64,000 nt of DNA from Gammaproteobacteria bacterium (lineage in GTDB: Bacteria > Pseudomonadota > Gammaproteobacteria > JABDBA01): the NCBI GenBank assembly GCA_013288885.1, contig JABDBA010000001.1:556025-620024 (forward strand), given 5' to 3'. Of the stretch, positions 3,574-29,994 are shown in pieces. A program made the translations under genes and the position numbers. The notes under the pieces were generated by a model. The model was not told the DNA's origin, ran no database searches, and saw nothing but the letters and a program-made list of their open reading frames with translations. The number at the start of each line of letters is the position of its first letter. Position 1 is the stretch's first letter.

Positions 3574-4623
3574 ATGAAAATATTAAATCAGCTCACCACC
3601 CAGTTTTTGCATTGCTTTGCGCCAGAAACAGCACATCATTTAGCCATTAAAATGCTACGTCATTTACCAGCGCAAAATGTTCTTAGTGATATTGATAGCA
3701 ATATTTTTTCTCAAGAACTATTAGGCATGAAATTCACTCATCCACTTGGTTTGGCGGCGGGTTTTGATAAAAATGCCGATGTATTTGATAAATTGGGGCA
3801 GTTAGGATTTTCATTTGTAGAAGTGGGATCAGTAACGCCACGCCCACAACCAGGCAACCCTAAACCACGTTTATTTCGTTTGCCAGAACAACAAGCCATT
3901 ATCAATCGTTATGGATTTAATTCCGAAGGTTTGGATTATATGGCACAACATCTACAACAATATCCACGCACCTGTATTACTGGAATAAATTTAGGTAAAA
4001 ATAAAGAAACTACCAATTATGCCGATGATTTTCTGCGTAATGCAGAAGTGTTATGCACACTCGGTGATTATTTTGTTGTCAACGTTTCTTCACCTAATAC
4101 GCCCGGGTTACGTGATTTACAAACACCAGAAGCACTCGCGCCGATCATTGATGGAATCCAAGATATTATTCGCCGTAAAAAACCAGGCTTGCCGCTGTTT
4201 GTAAAAATATCGCCAGATATGACTGTTCCACAAGAAACAGCGTTGCTAGAATTTTTGATCACAAAAGCCGTGAATGGCATTATTATCAGCAATACTACAC
4301 TGAGCCGTGAAGGTGTAGAAGGCAGTAAAAACGCGGCAGAAGCCGGTGGTTTATCAGGGCCGCCATTAAAAGAACGCACCACAGCAATGCTACGTCGCGC
4401 TTATAAAATTACTCAAGGCAAGCTAGTTCTCATTGGTTGTGGTGGTATTAGCAGTGGTTTAGATGCTTATGAGAAACTACGAGCCGGTGCTGATCTCTTG
4501 CAAATTTATACGTCATTTGTTTATCACGGCCCACTGGTGATAAGAAAAATATTGGTCGAACTGGCCGAATTGCTAAAGCGGGATGGGGTTAAAAATGTGA
4601 GGGAGATTATCGGACACTTATAA
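3574..4623 (+). CDS. pyrD: Quinone-dependent dihydroorotate dehydrogenase
   Basis: GLAAGFDKN, PQPGNPKPRLFRL, INRYGFN, NVSSPNTPGLR, VKISPD, SNTT, GGLSG motifs. Confidence 0.97.
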   Translation: MKILNQLTTQFLHCFAPETAHHLAIKMLRHLPAQNVLSDIDSNIFSQELLGMKFTHPLGLAAGFDKNADVFDKLGQLGFSFVEVGSVTPRPQPGNPKPRLFRLPEQQAIINRYGFNSEGLDYMAQHLQQYPRTCITGINLGKNKETTNYADDFLRNAEVLCTLGDYFVVNVSSPNTPGLRDLQTPEALAPIIDGIQDIIRRKKPGLPLFVKISPDMTVPQETALLEFLITKAVNGIIISNTTLSREGVEGSKNAAEAGGLSGPPLKERTTAMLRRAYKITQGKLVLIGCGGISSGLDAYEKLRAGADLLQIYTSFVYHGPLVIRKILVELAELLKRDGVKNVREIIGHL

Positions 4624-4703
4624 GCCCCATATAAGTGTCCGATAATTCCTGTTGCAATGTAATTACCGGACACTTATAATAGGCCTATAAGTGTCCGGTA
4701 ATT
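4606..4703. repeat. Tandem pair of 17-7-17 bp inverted repeats overlapping the ATPase promoter
   Basis: ATTATCGGACACTTATA-AGCCCCA-TATAAGTGTCCGATAAT (4606-4646) and ATTACCGGACACTTATA-ATAGGCC-TATAAGTGTCCGGTAAT (4662-4702); both are perfect inverted repeats. Confidence 0.95.
4652..4680 (+). promoter_or_regulatory. Sigma70 promoter of ATPase-nuclease gene 1
   Basis: TTGCAA (4652-4657)-N17-TATAAT (4675-4680); ATG at 4716. Confidence 0.75.
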
Positions 4704-4715
4704 TGGGGGTGGGCT

Positions 4716-6170
4716 ATGTTGATAGGTAGAAACACTGAAATTCGCAGGTTGGAGAAGCTTTTCCGGTCATCGGAGGCTGAATTTGCTGTTTTGTACGGTA
4801 GGAGAAGAGTCGGGAAAACGTACTTGGTCAGGGAGTTTTTTGCGCAAAAGGACTGCCAATTTTTCCAAGTTACGGGGTCACAAAAGGGAACTCTAAGCAA
4901 GCAACTCACCCATTTCACCGACTCATTATCGGAAACCTTTACTCAGGGTGTGAGAATTACCACGCCGGACTCTTGGGAAGCAGCATTTAAAATGCTTACC
5001 CAATTTATTGATTCCATAAAATTTAAAAGCAAAATGGTTATTTTTTTGGATGAATTACCATGGCTGGCGACCAGGCGTTCAGGGTTGCTAGAAGCGTTAG
5101 ATTATTACTGGAATCAATTTTGGTCGACCAACCCTAAAATTATTTTAATTGTTTGTGGTTCAAGTGCTTCATGGCTGATAAAAAATATTATTTATAATCA
5201 AGGGGGTCTACATAATCGTTGTACCTGTGAGCTTAAATTGGATCCTTTCAATTTGGCAGAAACAAACGATTATCTCATTAGCAAAGGAATTAAGTTAAAC
5301 AAAAATCATGTTTTGGCACTTTATATGGCGCTTGGGGGTATTCCGTATTACTTAAAATATATAGAGCCTGGGTTAACTGCGGATGAAAACATACAAAATA
5401 TTCTTTTTGATAAGAAAGCACCACTTAAGGACGAATTTAAAAAACTTTTTAGTTCACTTTTTAAAAATGCTAATGCTTACATAGAGTTAGTGGAACTAAT
5501 TGCACGGAAGAAAGAGGGAATAAGTCGTACAGAGCTTGAATCATCATCAAAGTTGTCCCGTGGTGGAGGAAGGCTGACGCAACGATTAGGTCAGTTAACC
5601 AATACGAACTTTATTGAAACTTATGTACCTTGGGATAAAGAACGAGGCGAGTATTATAAAGTTATTGATGAATTTTGTTTATTTTATATTTATTGGTTAT
5701 CGACAAAACGAAATAAAAAAATTCTACACGATTACTGGTTAAAACGAACACAAAAACCAATATATCATGTATGGGCAGGATATGCATTTGAAGCAATTTG
5801 CCATAAACATATCGCTCAAATTATTCAAGCATTAAATATAAAAACTGCTGAAAATATTTCATCTTGGAAAATAATTGGCAAGAAAGAGAAAGAGAATGAG
5901 GATGGTGCGCAAATTGATTTGTTAATTGATCGAGATGATGATGCAATAACTATATGTGAGATCAAATATACCGATCAACCATTTGTGATTGATAAATCAT
6001 ATGCAGAGAACCTGAAGAAAAAAATTAATGTTTTTAAAAAAGAAACAAGAACTGACAAACAAGTATTTTTAGTCATAATTTCAGCTAATGGTCTTAAGAA
6101 AACGATGTATTCAGAAGAGTTGATTAATGGTTTGGTAACATTAGCTGATCTATTTAAACAGACTATTTGA
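4716..6170 (+). CDS. AAA+/archaeal-type ATPase with central winged helix and C-terminal PD-(D/E)XK nuclease-like (DUF234-like) domain, paralog 1
   Basis: IGRNTE, Walker A YGRRRVGKT, Walker B IFLDELPW, LIVCGS, GGIPYYL, wHTH-like GISRTELESSSKLSRGGGRLTQRL, GYAFEAIC, QIDLLIDR...ICEIKY. Confidence 0.9.
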   Translation: MLIGRNTEIRRLEKLFRSSEAEFAVLYGRRRVGKTYLVREFFAQKDCQFFQVTGSQKGTLSKQLTHFTDSLSETFTQGVRITTPDSWEAAFKMLTQFIDSIKFKSKMVIFLDELPWLATRRSGLLEALDYYWNQFWSTNPKIILIVCGSSASWLIKNIIYNQGGLHNRCTCELKLDPFNLAETNDYLISKGIKLNKNHVLALYMALGGIPYYLKYIEPGLTADENIQNILFDKKAPLKDEFKKLFSSLFKNANAYIELVELIARKKEGISRTELESSSKLSRGGGRLTQRLGQLTNTNFIETYVPWDKERGEYYKVIDEFCLFYIYWLSTKRNKKILHDYWLKRTQKPIYHVWAGYAFEAICHKHIAQIIQALNIKTAENISSWKIIGKKEKENEDGAQIDLLIDRDDDAITICEIKYTDQPFVIDKSYAENLKKKINVFKKETRTDKQVFLVIISANGLKKTMYSEELINGLVTLADLFKQTI

Positions 6171-6199: not shown

Positions 6200-7175
6200 A
6201 TGAACAACAGACCCGTTTACATTGATTGAATTCGGTATTGCTGGCGGTGTTGACACCAATAGCGATTTACCCATTACGCTCGCACGATCATTGGTGAAAA
6301 AACTGTTAGGAATGCATTCGGCAAAAACATTGGTCGATAAAACTAAGATTTTCTTTTCAATACGCCCTGCTGATTTTAAATTTAAAACACCTTCTGTTAA
6401 AGAACCGCGTACAGGGCTGTCGATGGGCGAACATTGTGAAAAGATGGTAAAAGAATGGAATATTTCACGACAAGCGCAAGATGAGCTTGCACTTAAGAGC
6501 CATCAAAATGGCAGCAACGCATATAGCGATGGTTTTTATAATGATTTAGTATTTGAATTTTGCGGGTTAAAAAAAGACGCCTTTTTACGCGCTGATACTA
6601 CATTAGAAAAACTCGCCAAACTTAAATCGGCGTTTGATTTTTCTAGCCAAGGTACCTTAACTGCTGGCAATAGCACACCATTGACTGATGGGTCGGCTGC
6701 AGTTTTATTGGCGAGTGAGGAAGAAATCAAACGCAAAAATTGGACGCCTTTAGCACGTTTTGTGGATGCGCAAGTTGCTGGAGTAGATTATGTACATGGC
6801 GATGGCTTACTCATGGCCCCTACAATAGCAGTGCCGAAATTACTTGATCGCAATGGACTTAAATTACAAGATTTTGATTTTTACGAAATCCATGAGGCTT
6901 TTGAAGGCCAGCTACTTTGTACACTAAGAGCTTGGGAATCTGCCAATTATTGCCGGAATGTATTAAAAAGAGAGAATGCGTTGGGTGCTATCGATAAAAC
7001 AAAATTAAATATCAAAGGTGGTAGTGTTGCCATTGGGCATCCCTTTGCAGCTACTGGAGCAAGAATTGTAGCTACACTAGCAAAGATATTGCATCAAAAC
7101 GGAAGAGGTCGCGGTCTCATTTCCATTTGCACCGCAGGTGGAATGGGTGTGACCGCGATATTAGAAGCAGCTTAA
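6200..7175 (+). pseudogene. Acetyl-CoA C-acyltransferase (thiolase, FadI/FadA2-like) with internal deletion and frameshift
   Basis: RBS then ATG 6200 gives the typical thiolase start MNNRPVYI, then stops at 6227-6229. The other frame resumes at IEFGIAGGVD and carries HEAF, GHPFAATG and SICTAGG, but the N-terminal catalytic-Cys region is absent. Confidence 0.8.
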
Positions 7176-28410: not shown

Positions 28411-28506
28411 AGTTGTGGCTGATTATAAGATGTTTATATTTAGCCACAACTCCTCTGTACATTCGAGTTATGGCTGGCTATAATAGAGGTATAATTAGCC
28501 ACAACC
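28411..28506. repeat. Tandem pair of 17-7-17 bp inverted repeats overlapping the promoter of ATPase paralog 2
   Basis: AGTTGTGGCTGATTATA-AGATGTT-TATATTTAGCCACAACT (28411-28451) and AGTTATGGCTGGCTATA-ATAGAGG-TATAATTAGCCACAACC (28466-28506); imperfect. Contains TGTACA (28456-28461)-N17-TATAAT (28479-28484). Confidence 0.88.
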
Positions 28507-28518
28507 CAGGTACTTGCC

Positions 28519-29994
28519 ATGAAGAAGATGATTGTTGGTCGAAAAATAGAACAGAATATCTTAGCAGCCACCTTAAAATCGAAAAAAGCTGAATTTGTCG
28601 CCGTCTATGGCCGACGCCGGGTCGGTAAAACCTTCCTTATTGAACAATTCTTCATACAAAAACCTTGTTTATATTTTTATTTAACAGGGTTACATAAAGG
28701 AACACTCAAAGAACACCTAACTGTTTTTGCCAAATCTATGAGCACCGCTTTTTTTGCCAATACTGGCATTCAATTGGAAAGCCCCTCAAATTGGTTAAAA
28801 GCATTTGAATTGCTGACCAATGCAATCAATAAATTTTCAAAGCAAAAGAAGGTAGTGTTGTTTTTTGATGAATTGCCTTGGCTGGCCTCGAAAAAATCCG
28901 GCTTTAAAAAAGCGTTGGATTTTTATTGGAATACAAGATGGTCAAAAGATAACAGGATAATTCTTATTGTATGTGGGTCCGCTGCTTCTTGGATAATTAA
29001 AAATATAATTAATGATAAAGGTGGTCTTCATAACCGTATTACTTTACAACTCCCTTTATATCCATTTTCTCTAAAAGAAAGCTATGATTATTTAAATTAT
29101 ATGGGCAATAAATTTAATCAAAAGCAAACATTAGAACTTTATATGGTGTTGGGAGGCATTCCACATTATCTGGAAAAAGTAAAGTCTGATCTTTCCGCAA
29201 TACAAAATATTTCTAAACTTTGTTTTACAAGAAATGGGCAATTATTTAAGGAATTTGATAAATTATTTTCATCACTATTTGATAATGCAGAAACTTATGT
29301 GGAGCTGATTAAAATTATCGCTACTAAAAGAAATGGAATGACACGGAGAGAGCTTGAAAGTAAAGCAAAATTGTCAGAAAGTGGTGGAACTTTAACTGAT
29401 CGCTTAGTGGCATTAGAGCAGGCAGGATTTATAAAAAGTTTTGTGCCGATTGGCTATACCGAAAAAGGTTTGTGCTATAAGTTAATTGATGAATATTGCC
29501 TGTTTTACCTTACCTGGATTAACCCTGTTAAACGGCAAATTGAAAATGAATCTGAGCCTGGTTATTGGGCATCAAAAAATAGTACACCTGCATGGCGTAG
29601 TTGGTCTGGGTATGCATTTGAATCAGTTTGTTTAAAACATGTGGCGCAGATTAAAAAGGCGCTTTTTATTCCCCCAGGAACATTATCAGGGTCATGGTTT
29701 TGCCAACCTGACGGAAAAAATAAATTGGAAGGAGCGCAGATTGATTTGTTGTTTGATAGAGATGATGGAGTGATTACATTATGTGAAATAAAGTATTGTC
29801 AATCACCATTTGAAATTGATAAAAAATATGCCGATGAACTAGTGAGAAAAGTGAAGGTTTTTAAAGAGCGTACTAAAGTCAACAAACAAATATTTTTATC
29901 GATGATTACGGCAAATGCTTTGAAAAAAAACAGGTATTCAGAAGAGCTTATTACTAGTAGAGCAACGCTTGATGATTTGTTTCAAGATGTTTGA
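28519..29994 (+). CDS. AAA+/archaeal-type ATPase-wHTH-PD-(D/E)XK protein, paralog 2
   Basis: VGRKIE, YGRRRVGKT, FFDELPWLA, LIVCGSAASW, GGLHNR, GGIPHYL, GYAFESVC, GAQIDLLFDRDD..ITLCEIKY; colinear with 4716..6170. Confidence 0.9.
   Translation: MKKMIVGRKIEQNILAATLKSKKAEFVAVYGRRRVGKTFLIEQFFIQKPCLYFYLTGLHKGTLKEHLTVFAKSMSTAFFANTGIQLESPSNWLKAFELLTNAINKFSKQKKVVLFFDELPWLASKKSGFKKALDFYWNTRWSKDNRIILIVCGSAASWIIKNIINDKGGLHNRITLQLPLYPFSLKESYDYLNYMGNKFNQKQTLELYMVLGGIPHYLEKVKSDLSAIQNISKLCFTRNGQLFKEFDKLFSSLFDNAETYVELIKIIATKRNGMTRRELESKAKLSESGGTLTDRLVALEQAGFIKSFVPIGYTEKGLCYKLIDEYCLFYLTWINPVKRQIENESEPGYWASKNSTPAWRSWSGYAFESVCLKHVAQIKKALFIPPGTLSGSWFCQPDGKNKLEGAQIDLLFDRDDGVITLCEIKYCQSPFEIDKKYADELVRKVKVFKERTKVNKQIFLSMITANALKKNRYSEELITSRATLDDLFQDV

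Follow-up and report, generated by a model that had tools for sequence, protein, structure and literature searches.

The C proteins of restriction-modification systems are DNA-binding modules that act on two adjacent palindromic operators (C-boxes) in front of their own gene, and they time and limit the expression of the nuclease after transfer. Likewise, the orc1/cdc6 genes adjoin inverted recognition boxes. WYL-domain BrxR-type repressors are described to bind inverted repeats upstream of defence genes (PMC9122601). In addition, 145 PADLOC candidates (PDCs) have been put forward, for which phage protection is presented as a candidate role (bioRxiv 10.1101/2024.01.29.577857; PMC12988326). One of them, PDC-S27 (COG1672; PF01637 + PF03008), is presented as an ATPase fused to a PD-(D/E)XK domain, which is also the make-up of the proteins studied here, and one survey gives 3503 archaeal and 4562 bacterial instances (PMC12988326). 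DUF234 is listed as a PD-(D/E)XK family (PMC3424549). In the literature searched, supplements aside, no operator, autoregulation or recognition code is described for the PDC-S27/DUF234/COG1672/PF01637 family, in agreement with a preliminary description of this DNA, which knew of no account of such a cis-architecture.

Here, we analysed in silico a window of 64,000 nucleotides (the whole stretch of DNA under study). Upstream of a PDC-S27 gene, we find an array of half-sites that overlaps the predicted promoter and is conserved family-wide, and half-site bases covary with residues of the encoded protein. The protein itself exhibits the folds and catalytic motifs of an ATPase-nuclease.

Half-site array and predicted promoter of the window gene

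The window gene (4716-6170, plus strand) encodes a protein of 484 aa and is preceded by four half-sites between 4606 and 4702. Half-site 1 (4606-4622, plus strand; ATTATCGGACACTTATA) overlaps the pyrD stop codon (4621-4623), and half-site 2 (4630-4646, minus strand) is its perfect inverted partner across a 7-nt spacer. Half-site 3 (4662-4678, plus strand; ATTACCGGACACTTATA) has its perfect inverted partner in half-site 4 (4686-4702, minus strand). The orientation alternates, and the spacers between the four half-sites are 7, 15 and 7 nt, in order. The two inverted pairs have arms of 17 and 18 nt that are 100% complementary, with 7-nt spacers, and the direct-repeat spacing of the palindromes is 56. 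A scan allowing mismatches recovered ATTAYCGGACACTTATA at all four arms with 0 mismatches. At three or fewer mismatches, the scan gave 6 matches against 0.40 expected, a number reached in 0 of 100 shuffles. The four-arm array is real and far beyond chance. The two perfect inverted pairs of 17-bp arms, the 7-bp spacers and the 56-bp period given in the preliminary description all hold.

A -35-like hexamer, TTGCAA (4652-4657, plus strand), lies within the 15-nt stretch that separates the two palindromes. The -10-like hexamer TATAAT (4675-4680, plus strand) is formed by the inner end of half-site 3 together with the spacer. This TTGCAA-17-TATAAT arrangement matches a sigma-70-like promoter at 10 of 12 positions (4652-4680), and the ATG at 4716 begins 13 nt past the last arm, both as originally noted. 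The transcription start of the cassette is only predicted, near 4687. Gene-specific sites and the gene's own predicted promoter overlap at this locus.

Two other candidate identities for the palindromes were dropped. A REP-like genome-wide repeat was ruled out, as the exact window palindrome was found only at its own locus in a genome scan. A pyrD terminator is unsupported, because the terminator scan gave no terminator-like site at the palindromes.

The window contains a second paralog (28519-29994, plus strand; 491 aa, 49% identical to the window protein) with its own half-site, TATAATCAGCCACAACT. Its array (28411-28505, plus strand) consists of two palindromes with 55-nt spacing, and a promoter-like site, TGTACA-17-TATAAT, lies at 28456-28484. 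It had been credited with the same geometry and different arms. The two palindromes and the separate half-site bear this out, but neither palindrome is perfect: complementarity is 89% in the first, and in the second the left arm matches at 12 of 17 positions by eye. In both window copies, the two palindromes flank the predicted -35, and the -10 occupies the middle of the proximal one; the promoter-like site matches at 10 of 12 positions in each copy. The best promoter site is placed similarly in about 10 of 24 gamma-type loci.

Arrays among paralogs, homologs and orthologs

The genome carries 14 full-length paralogs, and the cassette is one of two copies, as first counted, only within the window. 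All 14 show repeated half-sites of their own sequence just upstream of the start. By strict criteria, a 2x2 array (period 54-56) precedes 12 of the 14; of the remaining two, one has a single palindrome and the other has three looser ones (by eye). The 2.59 Mb genome holds 156 strong palindromes, and 16 of them fall in the 300 bp in front of the 14 paralogs. Tandem palindrome pairs spaced by 55-56 bp (4 of the 9 pairs found) occur exclusively upstream of paralogs. Elsewhere in the genome, the half-site words are not in excess (5 matches for 14 words, about 0.8 being expected per word); these searches used 14-mers, since 11-mers at one or fewer mismatches were too loose and gave chance-level counts. 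A regulon operator was ruled out by this lack of excess. The window gene and a paralog on contig C3 have identical half-site bases 1-12, and insulation between the paralogs is therefore incomplete. The specificity that the preliminary description assigned to each paralog is accordingly not entirely private.

The paralogs are old: identity among them peaks at about 55%, and recent copies are absent. They occur one by one in housekeeping surroundings (for example pyrD, upp, malic enzyme, aconitase, gpsA, purH, acs and fabF). The window gene neighbours pyrD and a 5'-truncated thiolase fragment, and the 28519 paralog neighbours GGDEF and OsmC genes. A survey of the flanking genes revealed no defence island around the 14 copies, and there was no methyltransferase among the largest flanking ORFs on each side of all 14.

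We also checked homologs in other genomes, including other phyla. Counting arrays by words, as a first palindrome finder missed the looser ones, we found a 2x2 array in 41 of 83 homolog loci compared to 0 of 291 shuffles; the other 42 loci lack it by strict criteria. In 43 of 78 loci, the 150 bp in front of the gene contain a strong palindrome, as against 1 of 390 shuffles. The control regions at -700 to -550 (0 of 70) and within the gene (0 of 78) had none. The upstream repeats suggested as a check on homologs are thus present, both in the own paralogs and beyond this genome. Across phyla, the half-sites follow a common frame, TATAnnYnGCnnnA. The array keeps a conserved place with respect to promoter hexamers and start codon, and its usual period is 50-56 bp. 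The period of 54-56 bp does not correspond to a whole number of helical turns. The 17-7-17 x2 geometry of the preliminary description is correct for the window gene but is one variant only. What recurs throughout the family is a 17-nt half-site whose spacers alternate between two lengths (about 7 and 15 nt here; in Bacteroidota, about 2 and 15-16 nt). Some small genomes contain 14-21 divergent family copies, each with its own address.

An ortholog, L122, shares 69% protein identity with the window protein. Its four 15-nt arm cores are all identical to those of the window gene, and the 7-nt spacers have diverged. Palindromes also occur alone: solo palindromes without a gene were present at 8 of 19 loci, and decayed cassettes also exist. 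One solo palindrome lies in a genuine phage contig. Two family-like solo palindromes are in this genome. Autoregulation alone does not account for the solo palindromes.

Protein architecture and covariation with half-site bases

Both window proteins match the PDC-S27 profile PDLC04984 in full length. The window protein aligns with E 9e-172 (residues 2-480 on profile positions 4-473 of 474) and the 28519 paralog with E 4e-175. The N-terminal AAA+ ATPase domain (about aa 1-232; 4716-5411, plus strand) belongs to Pfam ATPase_2 (PF01637; 81.7 bits against a cut-off of 33.2, E 9e-23). It contains Walker A (G28-RRRVGK-T35) and Walker B (D112-E113), and GRRRxGK and D112-E113 are conserved. Pfam DUF234 (PF03008) remained just below its cut-off in the window protein (21.0 against 22.5 bits, E 4.5e-4) and gave no hit in the 28519 paralog. 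NCBIfam assigned no family. Among solved structures, a sequence search returned one clear match, 2qen (E 3e-9), and two weak packaging ATPases; the nuclease domain is absent from every solved relative found by this search.

The structure model (pLDDT 94.9) shows a winged helix at about aa 252-330 (5469-5705, plus strand), which fold searches match to STAND proteins and to Orc1/Cdc6 bound to DNA. Its modelled elements are H1 (252-263), H2 (271-277), H3 (286-296) and the wing strands 300-303 and 313-316. Residues 335-484 (5718-6167, plus strand; pLDDT 93.9) are modelled with the alpha-beta-beta-beta-alpha-beta core of PD-(D/E)XK nucleases. Performing VIA-align, we obtained NucS (2vld) and AF1548 (1y88) as the best matches (Z 8.4), followed by AddAB, SdaI, Can2, FokI and McrC. 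Foldseek was weak for this domain, with a best E of 1.4e-3 to McrC. The candidate active site comprises E359, D401 on strand 398-406 and E415-I-K417 on strand 410-417; the last two fit the PD-(D/E)XK pattern of an acidic residue on strand 2 and (D/E)xK on strand 3. Walker A, Walker B, E359, D401 and E415-x-K417 are invariant across the 14 paralogs. Across 94 sequences, E415 and K417 never vary, and conservation of D401 is at least 90%. The ATPase, winged-helix and PD-(D/E)XK reading of the preliminary description is borne out by the ATPase_2 match, the models and the E-I-K motif.

For the covariation of protein and array, half-sites were registered on TATA....GC, so those six positions were selected for. 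The registration was passed by 51 loci, about half of those with a consensus half-site, and 45 entered the covariation analysis; copies from viral contigs were kept outside the code counts, their registration being too poor. Among 2800 residue-base pairs, the top three were residue 286 with base 8 (z 9.1), residue 283 with base 12 (z 7.1) and residue 283 with base 11 (z 5.9). Arg286 goes with G8 at 14 of 14 loci and Thr286 with A8 at 10 of 10, while Ser283 goes with A12 at 17 of 20 and Asp283 with G12 at 5 of 6. The second window paralog has Ser283 and Thr286. A separate set of loci showed the same pairing of residue 286 with base 8 (5/5 and 4/4). In the model, residues 283-296 (5562-5603, plus strand) span the turn and H3, the putative recognition helix of the winged helix. 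Tests on phylogenetically independent pairs all ran in the expected direction (0 to 0.1 opposite); with 4-6 pairs, the medians were 0.125-0.25 and p 0.05 was missed. The covariation of arm sequence with winged-helix residues that had been proposed as a check is thus found, and it speaks for recognition of the sites by the gene product, although the independent-pairs tests have little power.

Proposed mechanism and relation to known systems

The region 4606-6170 is probably an autorepressed, self-contained single-gene cassette made of array, promoter and gene, and addressed by its own protein. The protein joins an Orc1/Cdc6- and STAND-like AAA+ ATPase, through a helical lid and a winged helix, to a C-terminal PD-(D/E)XK nuclease domain. 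The winged helix would probably read the 17-nt half-site TATAAGTGTCCGRTAAT, and residues where the recognition helix begins (283, 286 and probably also 288 and 290) would contact the variable bases 6-8 and 11-12. Presumably, one dimer would occupy each palindrome, and two dimers would cooperate over the conserved 54-56 bp. The half-sites bracket the -35 and cover the -10; bound protein would therefore shut off its own promoter. Such repression could keep a potentially harmful ATP-dependent nuclease low and buffered, and a cassette that enters a naive cell might give a burst of expression. Divergent half-sites would insulate the 14 paralogs from each other, a pattern otherwise known from toxin-antitoxin and two-component systems. 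As for a biological role, the PDC-S27 listing suggests anti-phage or anti-plasmid defence, and the cassette could also be a selfish one.

Could the array mainly serve a mobile or selfish cassette as a cis site, bound by the protein for cutting, recombination, homing or the exclusion of DNA with the same address, with promoter control secondary? The copies stand singly among housekeeping genes, outside defence islands, and orthologous lineages have no flanking genes in common. In the tree, the own paralogs interleave with copies of other taxa, a pattern that requires 9 changes; well-supported branches force at least 4 of these. The similarity between the L122 and window cassettes begins exactly at arm 1 and stops at the stop codon, the 3' flank of the window gene having nothing in common with the ortholog. 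The truncated thiolase next door, the solo palindromes (one in a phage contig, two in this genome) and decayed cassettes, the relatives encoded by 54 viral contigs and the invariant nuclease residues point the same way. However, there is no second end or flanking repeat 3' of the window gene (no arm-like sequence at three or fewer mismatches), unlike the two related ends of a transposon or insertion sequence. The paralogs are old rather than recent, and viral scans for three other specificities returned 0 matches. A pure recombination site would also not need the conserved placement of the array with respect to promoter hexamers and start codon. On balance, we consider this explanation unlikely.

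The palindromes might instead work as RNA or single-strand hairpins (a leader, a read-through insulator or an mRNA stabiliser) with no protein recognition. Indeed, 4600-4718 folds as two hairpins of 17-18 bp (-54 kcal/mol, z -7.1), and arm 1 overlaps the pyrD stop codon. However, the predicted -10 lies inside the proximal palindrome, and the cassette's own transcript would therefore include no more than its right arm. The stems are not followed by a U-tract, the terminator scan was negative there, and no Rfam family matched within the window. Since this explanation also leaves the cross-phylum half-site frame, the 50-56 bp period and the base-residue covariation unaccounted for, we regard it as very improbable. 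A different, host-encoded regulator that binds the arrays in place of the cassette protein appears extremely improbable: the half-site sequence differs per paralog, therefore 14 different host regulators would be required, and the bases track the winged helix of the adjacent gene in this genome as well as in other phyla.

We speculate on a wider scheme for PDC-S27 proteins, which in our judgement is unlikely to hold. They would be long-site, sequence-addressed ATP-dependent nucleases, each paralog having a private address of about 34 bp (read through residue 286 with base 8 and residue 283 with bases 11-12), and small genomes would keep 10-20 orthogonal address-nuclease pairs. The promoter copy would then be a self-address, and the solo addresses in chromosomes, decayed cassettes and one phage genome would be the real substrates, for cutting, exclusion or cassette copying.

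The autorepressed-cassette reading offers a first concrete, testable handle on PDC-S27/COG1672, by naming the DNA that each protein is predicted to bind and the promoter that it should control. The two-residue code predicts a changed base upon an Arg286 to Thr exchange. If the code is true, the family would amount to a natural collection of orthogonal repressor-operator pairs.

Compared to described systems, the window protein resembles Orc1/Cdc6 in having a winged helix behind an AAA+ module (Foldseek to the DNA complexes 2v1u, E 1.8e-9, and 2qby, E 6.5e-9). It differs from archaeal Orc1/Cdc6 by its C-terminal nuclease, its 14 single-gene copies and its promoter-overlapping sites. Nothing suggests a role at a replication origin, and the occurrence of 14 single copies among housekeeping genes argues against it. 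STAND NTPases (MalT, Apaf-1, plant NLRs and Avs) have the ATPase-helical-winged-helix core in common with it (Foldseek E about 1e-9 to 1e-8), and the Avs3 nuclease domain aligns with its PD-(D/E)XK domain (Z 5.2). However, it carries no repeat-type sensor domain behind the winged helix (no repeats in Pfam) and ends at residue 484 with a 150-residue nuclease. It also differs from the C-protein systems: the DNA-binding module is fused to an ATPase-nuclease, and there is no adjacent methyltransferase or separate controller gene. BrxR-type repressors are separate regulators with a ligand domain, whereas here the presumed effector itself has the winged helix. The PDC-S27 listing covers the protein only, and the operator array and the recognition code are the features seen here; since the family already figures among the defence candidates, novelty is confined to the cis-architecture.

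Operator array of the window gene and its conservation

The 17-nt arm ATTAYCGGACACTTATA occurs with 0 mismatches at four places upstream of the window gene, 4606-4622 (+), 4630-4646 (-), 4662-4678 (+) and 4686-4702 (-), hereafter half-sites or arms 1 to 4. The repeat finder joined them into two 100% complementary pairs with spacers of 7 nt and a direct period of 56 nt, exactly as the preliminary description had it. Searching the window for ATTAYCGGACACTTATA at ≤3 mismatches, we obtained 6 matches against 0.40 expected, and 0/100 shuffles reached 6. The upstream gene pyrD (3574-4623) has its stop codon inside arm 1. The sigma-70-like site said to be threaded through the arms, TTGCAA-17-TATAAT, was recovered at 4652-4680 with a 10/12 match. 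Its predicted -35 lies within the 15 nt separating the two palindromes, and its predicted -10 is formed by the inner end of arm 3 and its spacer. The ATG follows at 4716, 13 nt past the last arm, also as described.

The array is shared with L122, a homolog locus in a genome of another family of the same class, whose protein is 69% identical to the window protein. The L122 upstream region aligns with the window from arm 1 onward and nothing aligns past the stop codons; thus, the conserved unit is 4606-6170, the limits originally assigned to the cassette. Window and L122 have identical 15-nt cores at all four arms, and L122 retains the TTGC of the -35. The 7-nt spacers differ (ATGACTC versus AGCCCCA and ATAGGCC), and so do the flanks. 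This comparison indicates that the arms are under purifying selection.

The second window copy, at 28519, encodes a protein 49% identical to the window protein and had been credited with the same geometry. It does have two palindromes spaced by 55 nt, and TGTACA-17-TATAAT in the same relative position as the promoter of the window gene, but its palindromes are imperfect.

Following the first cassette, the thiolase ORF 6222-7175 is without approximately the first 145 profile positions of the N-terminal domain (Thiolase_N matched at 145-260 only). The missing N-terminal piece was not found elsewhere in the genome; a separate thiolase of 35% identity is on contig C31. Its truncation probably dates from the arrival of the cassette or later.

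Arrays of the paralogs and across the family

The cassette was first counted as one of two copies. Two indeed lie in the window, but the genome (2.59 Mb, 49 contigs, 84% complete) has 14 full-length paralogs, nine of them 46-52% and five 27-31% identical to the window protein. Reading 260 nt before each start, we found one to three palindromes upstream of every paralog, with a sequence differing per copy. Periods were 54-56 where measured, and the proximal centre was usually 33-42 nt before the ATG. The 2x2 rule, which requires two 12-mers in each orientation at ≤2 mismatches with one common period, picked out 12 of the 14; of the remaining two, one has a single perfect 21-7-21 palindrome and one has three of a looser kind. 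Scanning the whole genome blind, we obtained 156 non-overlapping strong palindromes, of which 16 fall within 300 nt upstream of the paralogs. Nine palindrome pairs within 120 nt were present genome-wide. The four with a centre distance of 55-56 nt were all at paralogs, and the remaining five were 52-76 nt apart with unrelated arms. The half-site words showed no excess elsewhere in the genome (5 matches for 14 words, ~0.8 expected per word), and therefore no regulon is defined.

The 14 paralogs are dispersed one by one, surrounded by housekeeping genes (pyrD, upp, malic enzyme, aconitase, gpsA, purH, acs, fabF); a few neighbours hint at mobile DNA (Fic, Rep3 initiator, DUF6387, ankyrin repeats). 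Next to the paralog C15:15973-17427 (L020) is a gene for a Rep3-type plasmid replication initiator; contig C15 may thus belong to a plasmid or an integrated element. In another paralog, C3:22175-23626 (L026; 49% identical, three palindromes), half-site bases 1-12 (TATAAGTGTCCG) are those of the window gene, and differences appear only beyond them; the two may cross-regulate. Two adjacent fragments in different frames at C32:3187-3704, corresponding to positions 169-255 and 247-337 of the PDC-S27 profile, are probably a broken fifteenth copy. Apart from the paralogs, C23:18489-18599 and C28:1400-1507 each hold a pair of unrelated GC-rich palindromes ~76 nt apart, of types ...ATTCCCGC... and ...GGGGAGA..., in an order swapped between the two places. 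They may represent another repeated element.

We sampled 80 homolog loci from one-genome-per-species contigs, covering Gammaproteobacteria, Chlamydiota, Bdellovibrionota, Bacteroidota, Bacillota, Spirochaetota, Planctomycetota and Lentisphaerota. A palindrome scoring ≥12 was present within 150 nt upstream of the start at 43/78 loci, as compared to 1/390 dinucleotide shuffles, 0/70 regions at -700 to -550 and 0/78 inside the gene; just downstream of the gene, where terminators are expected, the count was 11/76. The 2x2 rule held for 41/83 loci of other genomes versus 0/291 shuffles. Over all 53 positive loci, the period was 50-56 in 38, 72-85 in 9, 94 in 1 and 107-110 in 5. The commonest Bacteroidota form, TATA..GCC.AAATC-N13-16-GATTT.GGC..TATA, has the orientation and spacing of window arm 2-N15-arm 3, and therefore the unit is the 17-nt half-site. 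Homologs thus do carry upstream arrays, as had been anticipated, but the 17-7-17 geometry is one of two alternating dyads.

Protein domains and the half-site code

The proposed make-up of ATPase, winged helix and PD-(D/E)XK domain was borne out. The window protein matches Pfam ATPase_2 (E 9e-23) and, over its full length, PADLOC family PDC-S27 (E 9e-172; 4e-175 for the second window copy). Its DUF234 match (21.0 bits) is below the cut-off of 22.5, and NCBIfam returned no family. DUF234 is classed among PD-(D/E)XK families (PMC3424549), and PDC-S27 is described as an abundant ATPase fused to a PD-(D/E)XK domain (PMC12988326). Performing AlphaFold2 modelling with a 94-sequence alignment, we obtained pLDDT 94.9 and pTM 0.92. 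The top Foldseek matches were 2qen and 2fna, structures of two proteins from the same Pfam family, followed by STAND proteins and the Orc1/Cdc6-DNA complexes 2v1u and 2qby. The model has a canonical winged helix (H1 252-263, H2 271-277, H3 286-296, wing strands 300-303 and 313-316). Residues 335-484 modelled alone (pLDDT 93.9) aligned best with PD-(D/E)XK nucleases, namely NucS 2vld and AF1548 1y88 (Z 8.4), then AddAB, SdaI, Can2, FokI and McrC; Foldseek was weak for this part (best E 1.4e-3). Walker A (GRRRxGK), D112-E113, E359, D401 and E415-x-K417 are invariant in 14/14 paralogs, and E415 and K417 in 94/94 sequences.

The preliminary description suggested checking arm bases against winged-helix residues, and covariation was found. 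We used consensus half-sites of 51 loci, selected by a TATA-N4-GC fit at ≥5/6 positions; positions outside the selection are also conserved (position 7 pyrimidine in 48/51, position 14 A in 39/51). Mutual information was computed for 10 variable half-site positions and 280 variable protein columns at 45 loci. The top three of the 2800 pairs were residue 286-base 8 (z 9.1), residue 283-base 12 (z 7.1) and residue 283-base 11 (z 5.9). Residues 290 and 288 were within the top ten, and no pair outside the winged helix exceeded z 5.5. Residues 283-290 form the turn and the first turn of helix 3, the part by which a winged helix contacts the major groove. Arg286 goes with G8 at 14/14 loci and Thr286 with A8 at 10/10, while Gly286 is mixed. 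Ser283 goes with C11 at 18/20 and A12 at 17/20 loci, and Asp283 with G11 at 4/6 and G12 at 5/6. Both window genes obey the code, the first with Gly283, Arg286 and half-site TATAAGTGTCCG, the second with Ser283, Thr286 and TATAATCAGCCA. Later-fetched loci from five other genomes (25/30 usable) followed the code for Arg (5/5) and Thr (4/4). At L122, the automatic register took the wrong strand; base 8 is G on either reading. In a phylogenetic pairs test on a tree built without columns 278-298, nearly all independent pairs ran in the predicted direction (0 to 0.1 opposite); with only 4-6 pairs per trait the median p was 0.125-0.25, and so this test alone is not significant.

Predicted autorepression, solo palindromes and repertoires

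We consider it likely, from sequence and models, that 4606-6170 is an autorepressed cassette. The winged helix would read its own half-sites, and the -35 and -10 would be covered once arms 2-4 are occupied. The array period, conserved at 50-56 nt, suggests two units that cooperate. Alternatively, and less probably, the address serves DNA transactions; palindromes without the gene are the main reason to keep this reading. Exact CGGACACTTATA-N7-TATAAGTGTCCG was present at 2 viral and 17 metagenome loci. A homolog (58-70% identity) was found at 11/19, just downstream of the palindrome in ten; at L163, the palindrome comes after the stop codon of the homolog gene. No homolog was found at 8/19, two of which are the same contig. 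The genuine phage contig of L149:1139-1169 (and L150:4586-4616) has one exact, intergenic 12-7-12 palindrome of the window gene and encodes tail spike, small terminase, Mom-like, ParB-like, primase, helicase and exonuclease genes; no PDC-S27 gene was found on it. Two other solo loci are visibly decayed cassettes: at L155:619-760, the array is retained and is followed directly by no more than the final few codons of the gene, and at L160:9980-10070, one and a half palindromes are left with no gene. Others adjoin ordinary genes or HEPN-nucleotidyltransferase, HTH-Mrr-STAND and PIN genes. We read most solo palindromes as scars of lost cassettes.

The solo at L162:6095-6125 is flanked by a HEPN-nucleotidyltransferase gene on one side and a HTH-Mrr_cat-STAND gene of 1246 aa on the other, which is a defence-like neighbourhood. 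The window genome has two family-like solos without their own gene. The one at C6:30509-30539, TCGCCACTTATA-N7-TATAAGCGGCGA, is 28 nt downstream of the stop codon of paralog C6:30567-32015, and the one at C2:116440-116470, TGGCCATTTATA-N7-TATAAGTGGCCA, follows dnaJ and is similar to the C15 paralog's half-site. Searching viral sequences with three other half-site specificities gave no match.

None of the window's flanking genes is shared at homolog loci elsewhere. The genome's own paralogs did not form one clade when 94 sequences were placed in a quick maximum-likelihood tree; 9 changes are needed, and well-supported branches force ≥4 of them. The partner of the window gene is L039 (support 100), and that of another own paralog is L041 (support 97). 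Sampling the class, we found a match at E 1e-30 or better in 41/401 genomes, three candidates being scored per genome. Full PDC-S27 counts at this threshold in five of them were 21, 17, 9, 6 and 4. The first three (G322, G139 and G100, of other families, some matches being fragments) show that large repertoires recur in other small genomes and are not unique to the window genome. The 21-copy genome has its own repeated half-sites at 7/7 fetched loci, and relatives are encoded on 54 viral contigs. The copies are scattered, unlinked and of ancient divergence, a pattern that fits both a repertoire of insulated paralogs and a selfish cassette.

The candidate role in defence is taken from the PDC-S27 listing, and PMC12988326 and bioRxiv 10.1101/2024.01.29.577857 present PDC-S27 only as a candidate defence family. 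The open-access literature searched returned no description of the cis-architecture or the recognition code. What is known is the candidate-defence family PDC-S27; what would be new, as predicted from sequence, is an autoregulatory operator on that family.
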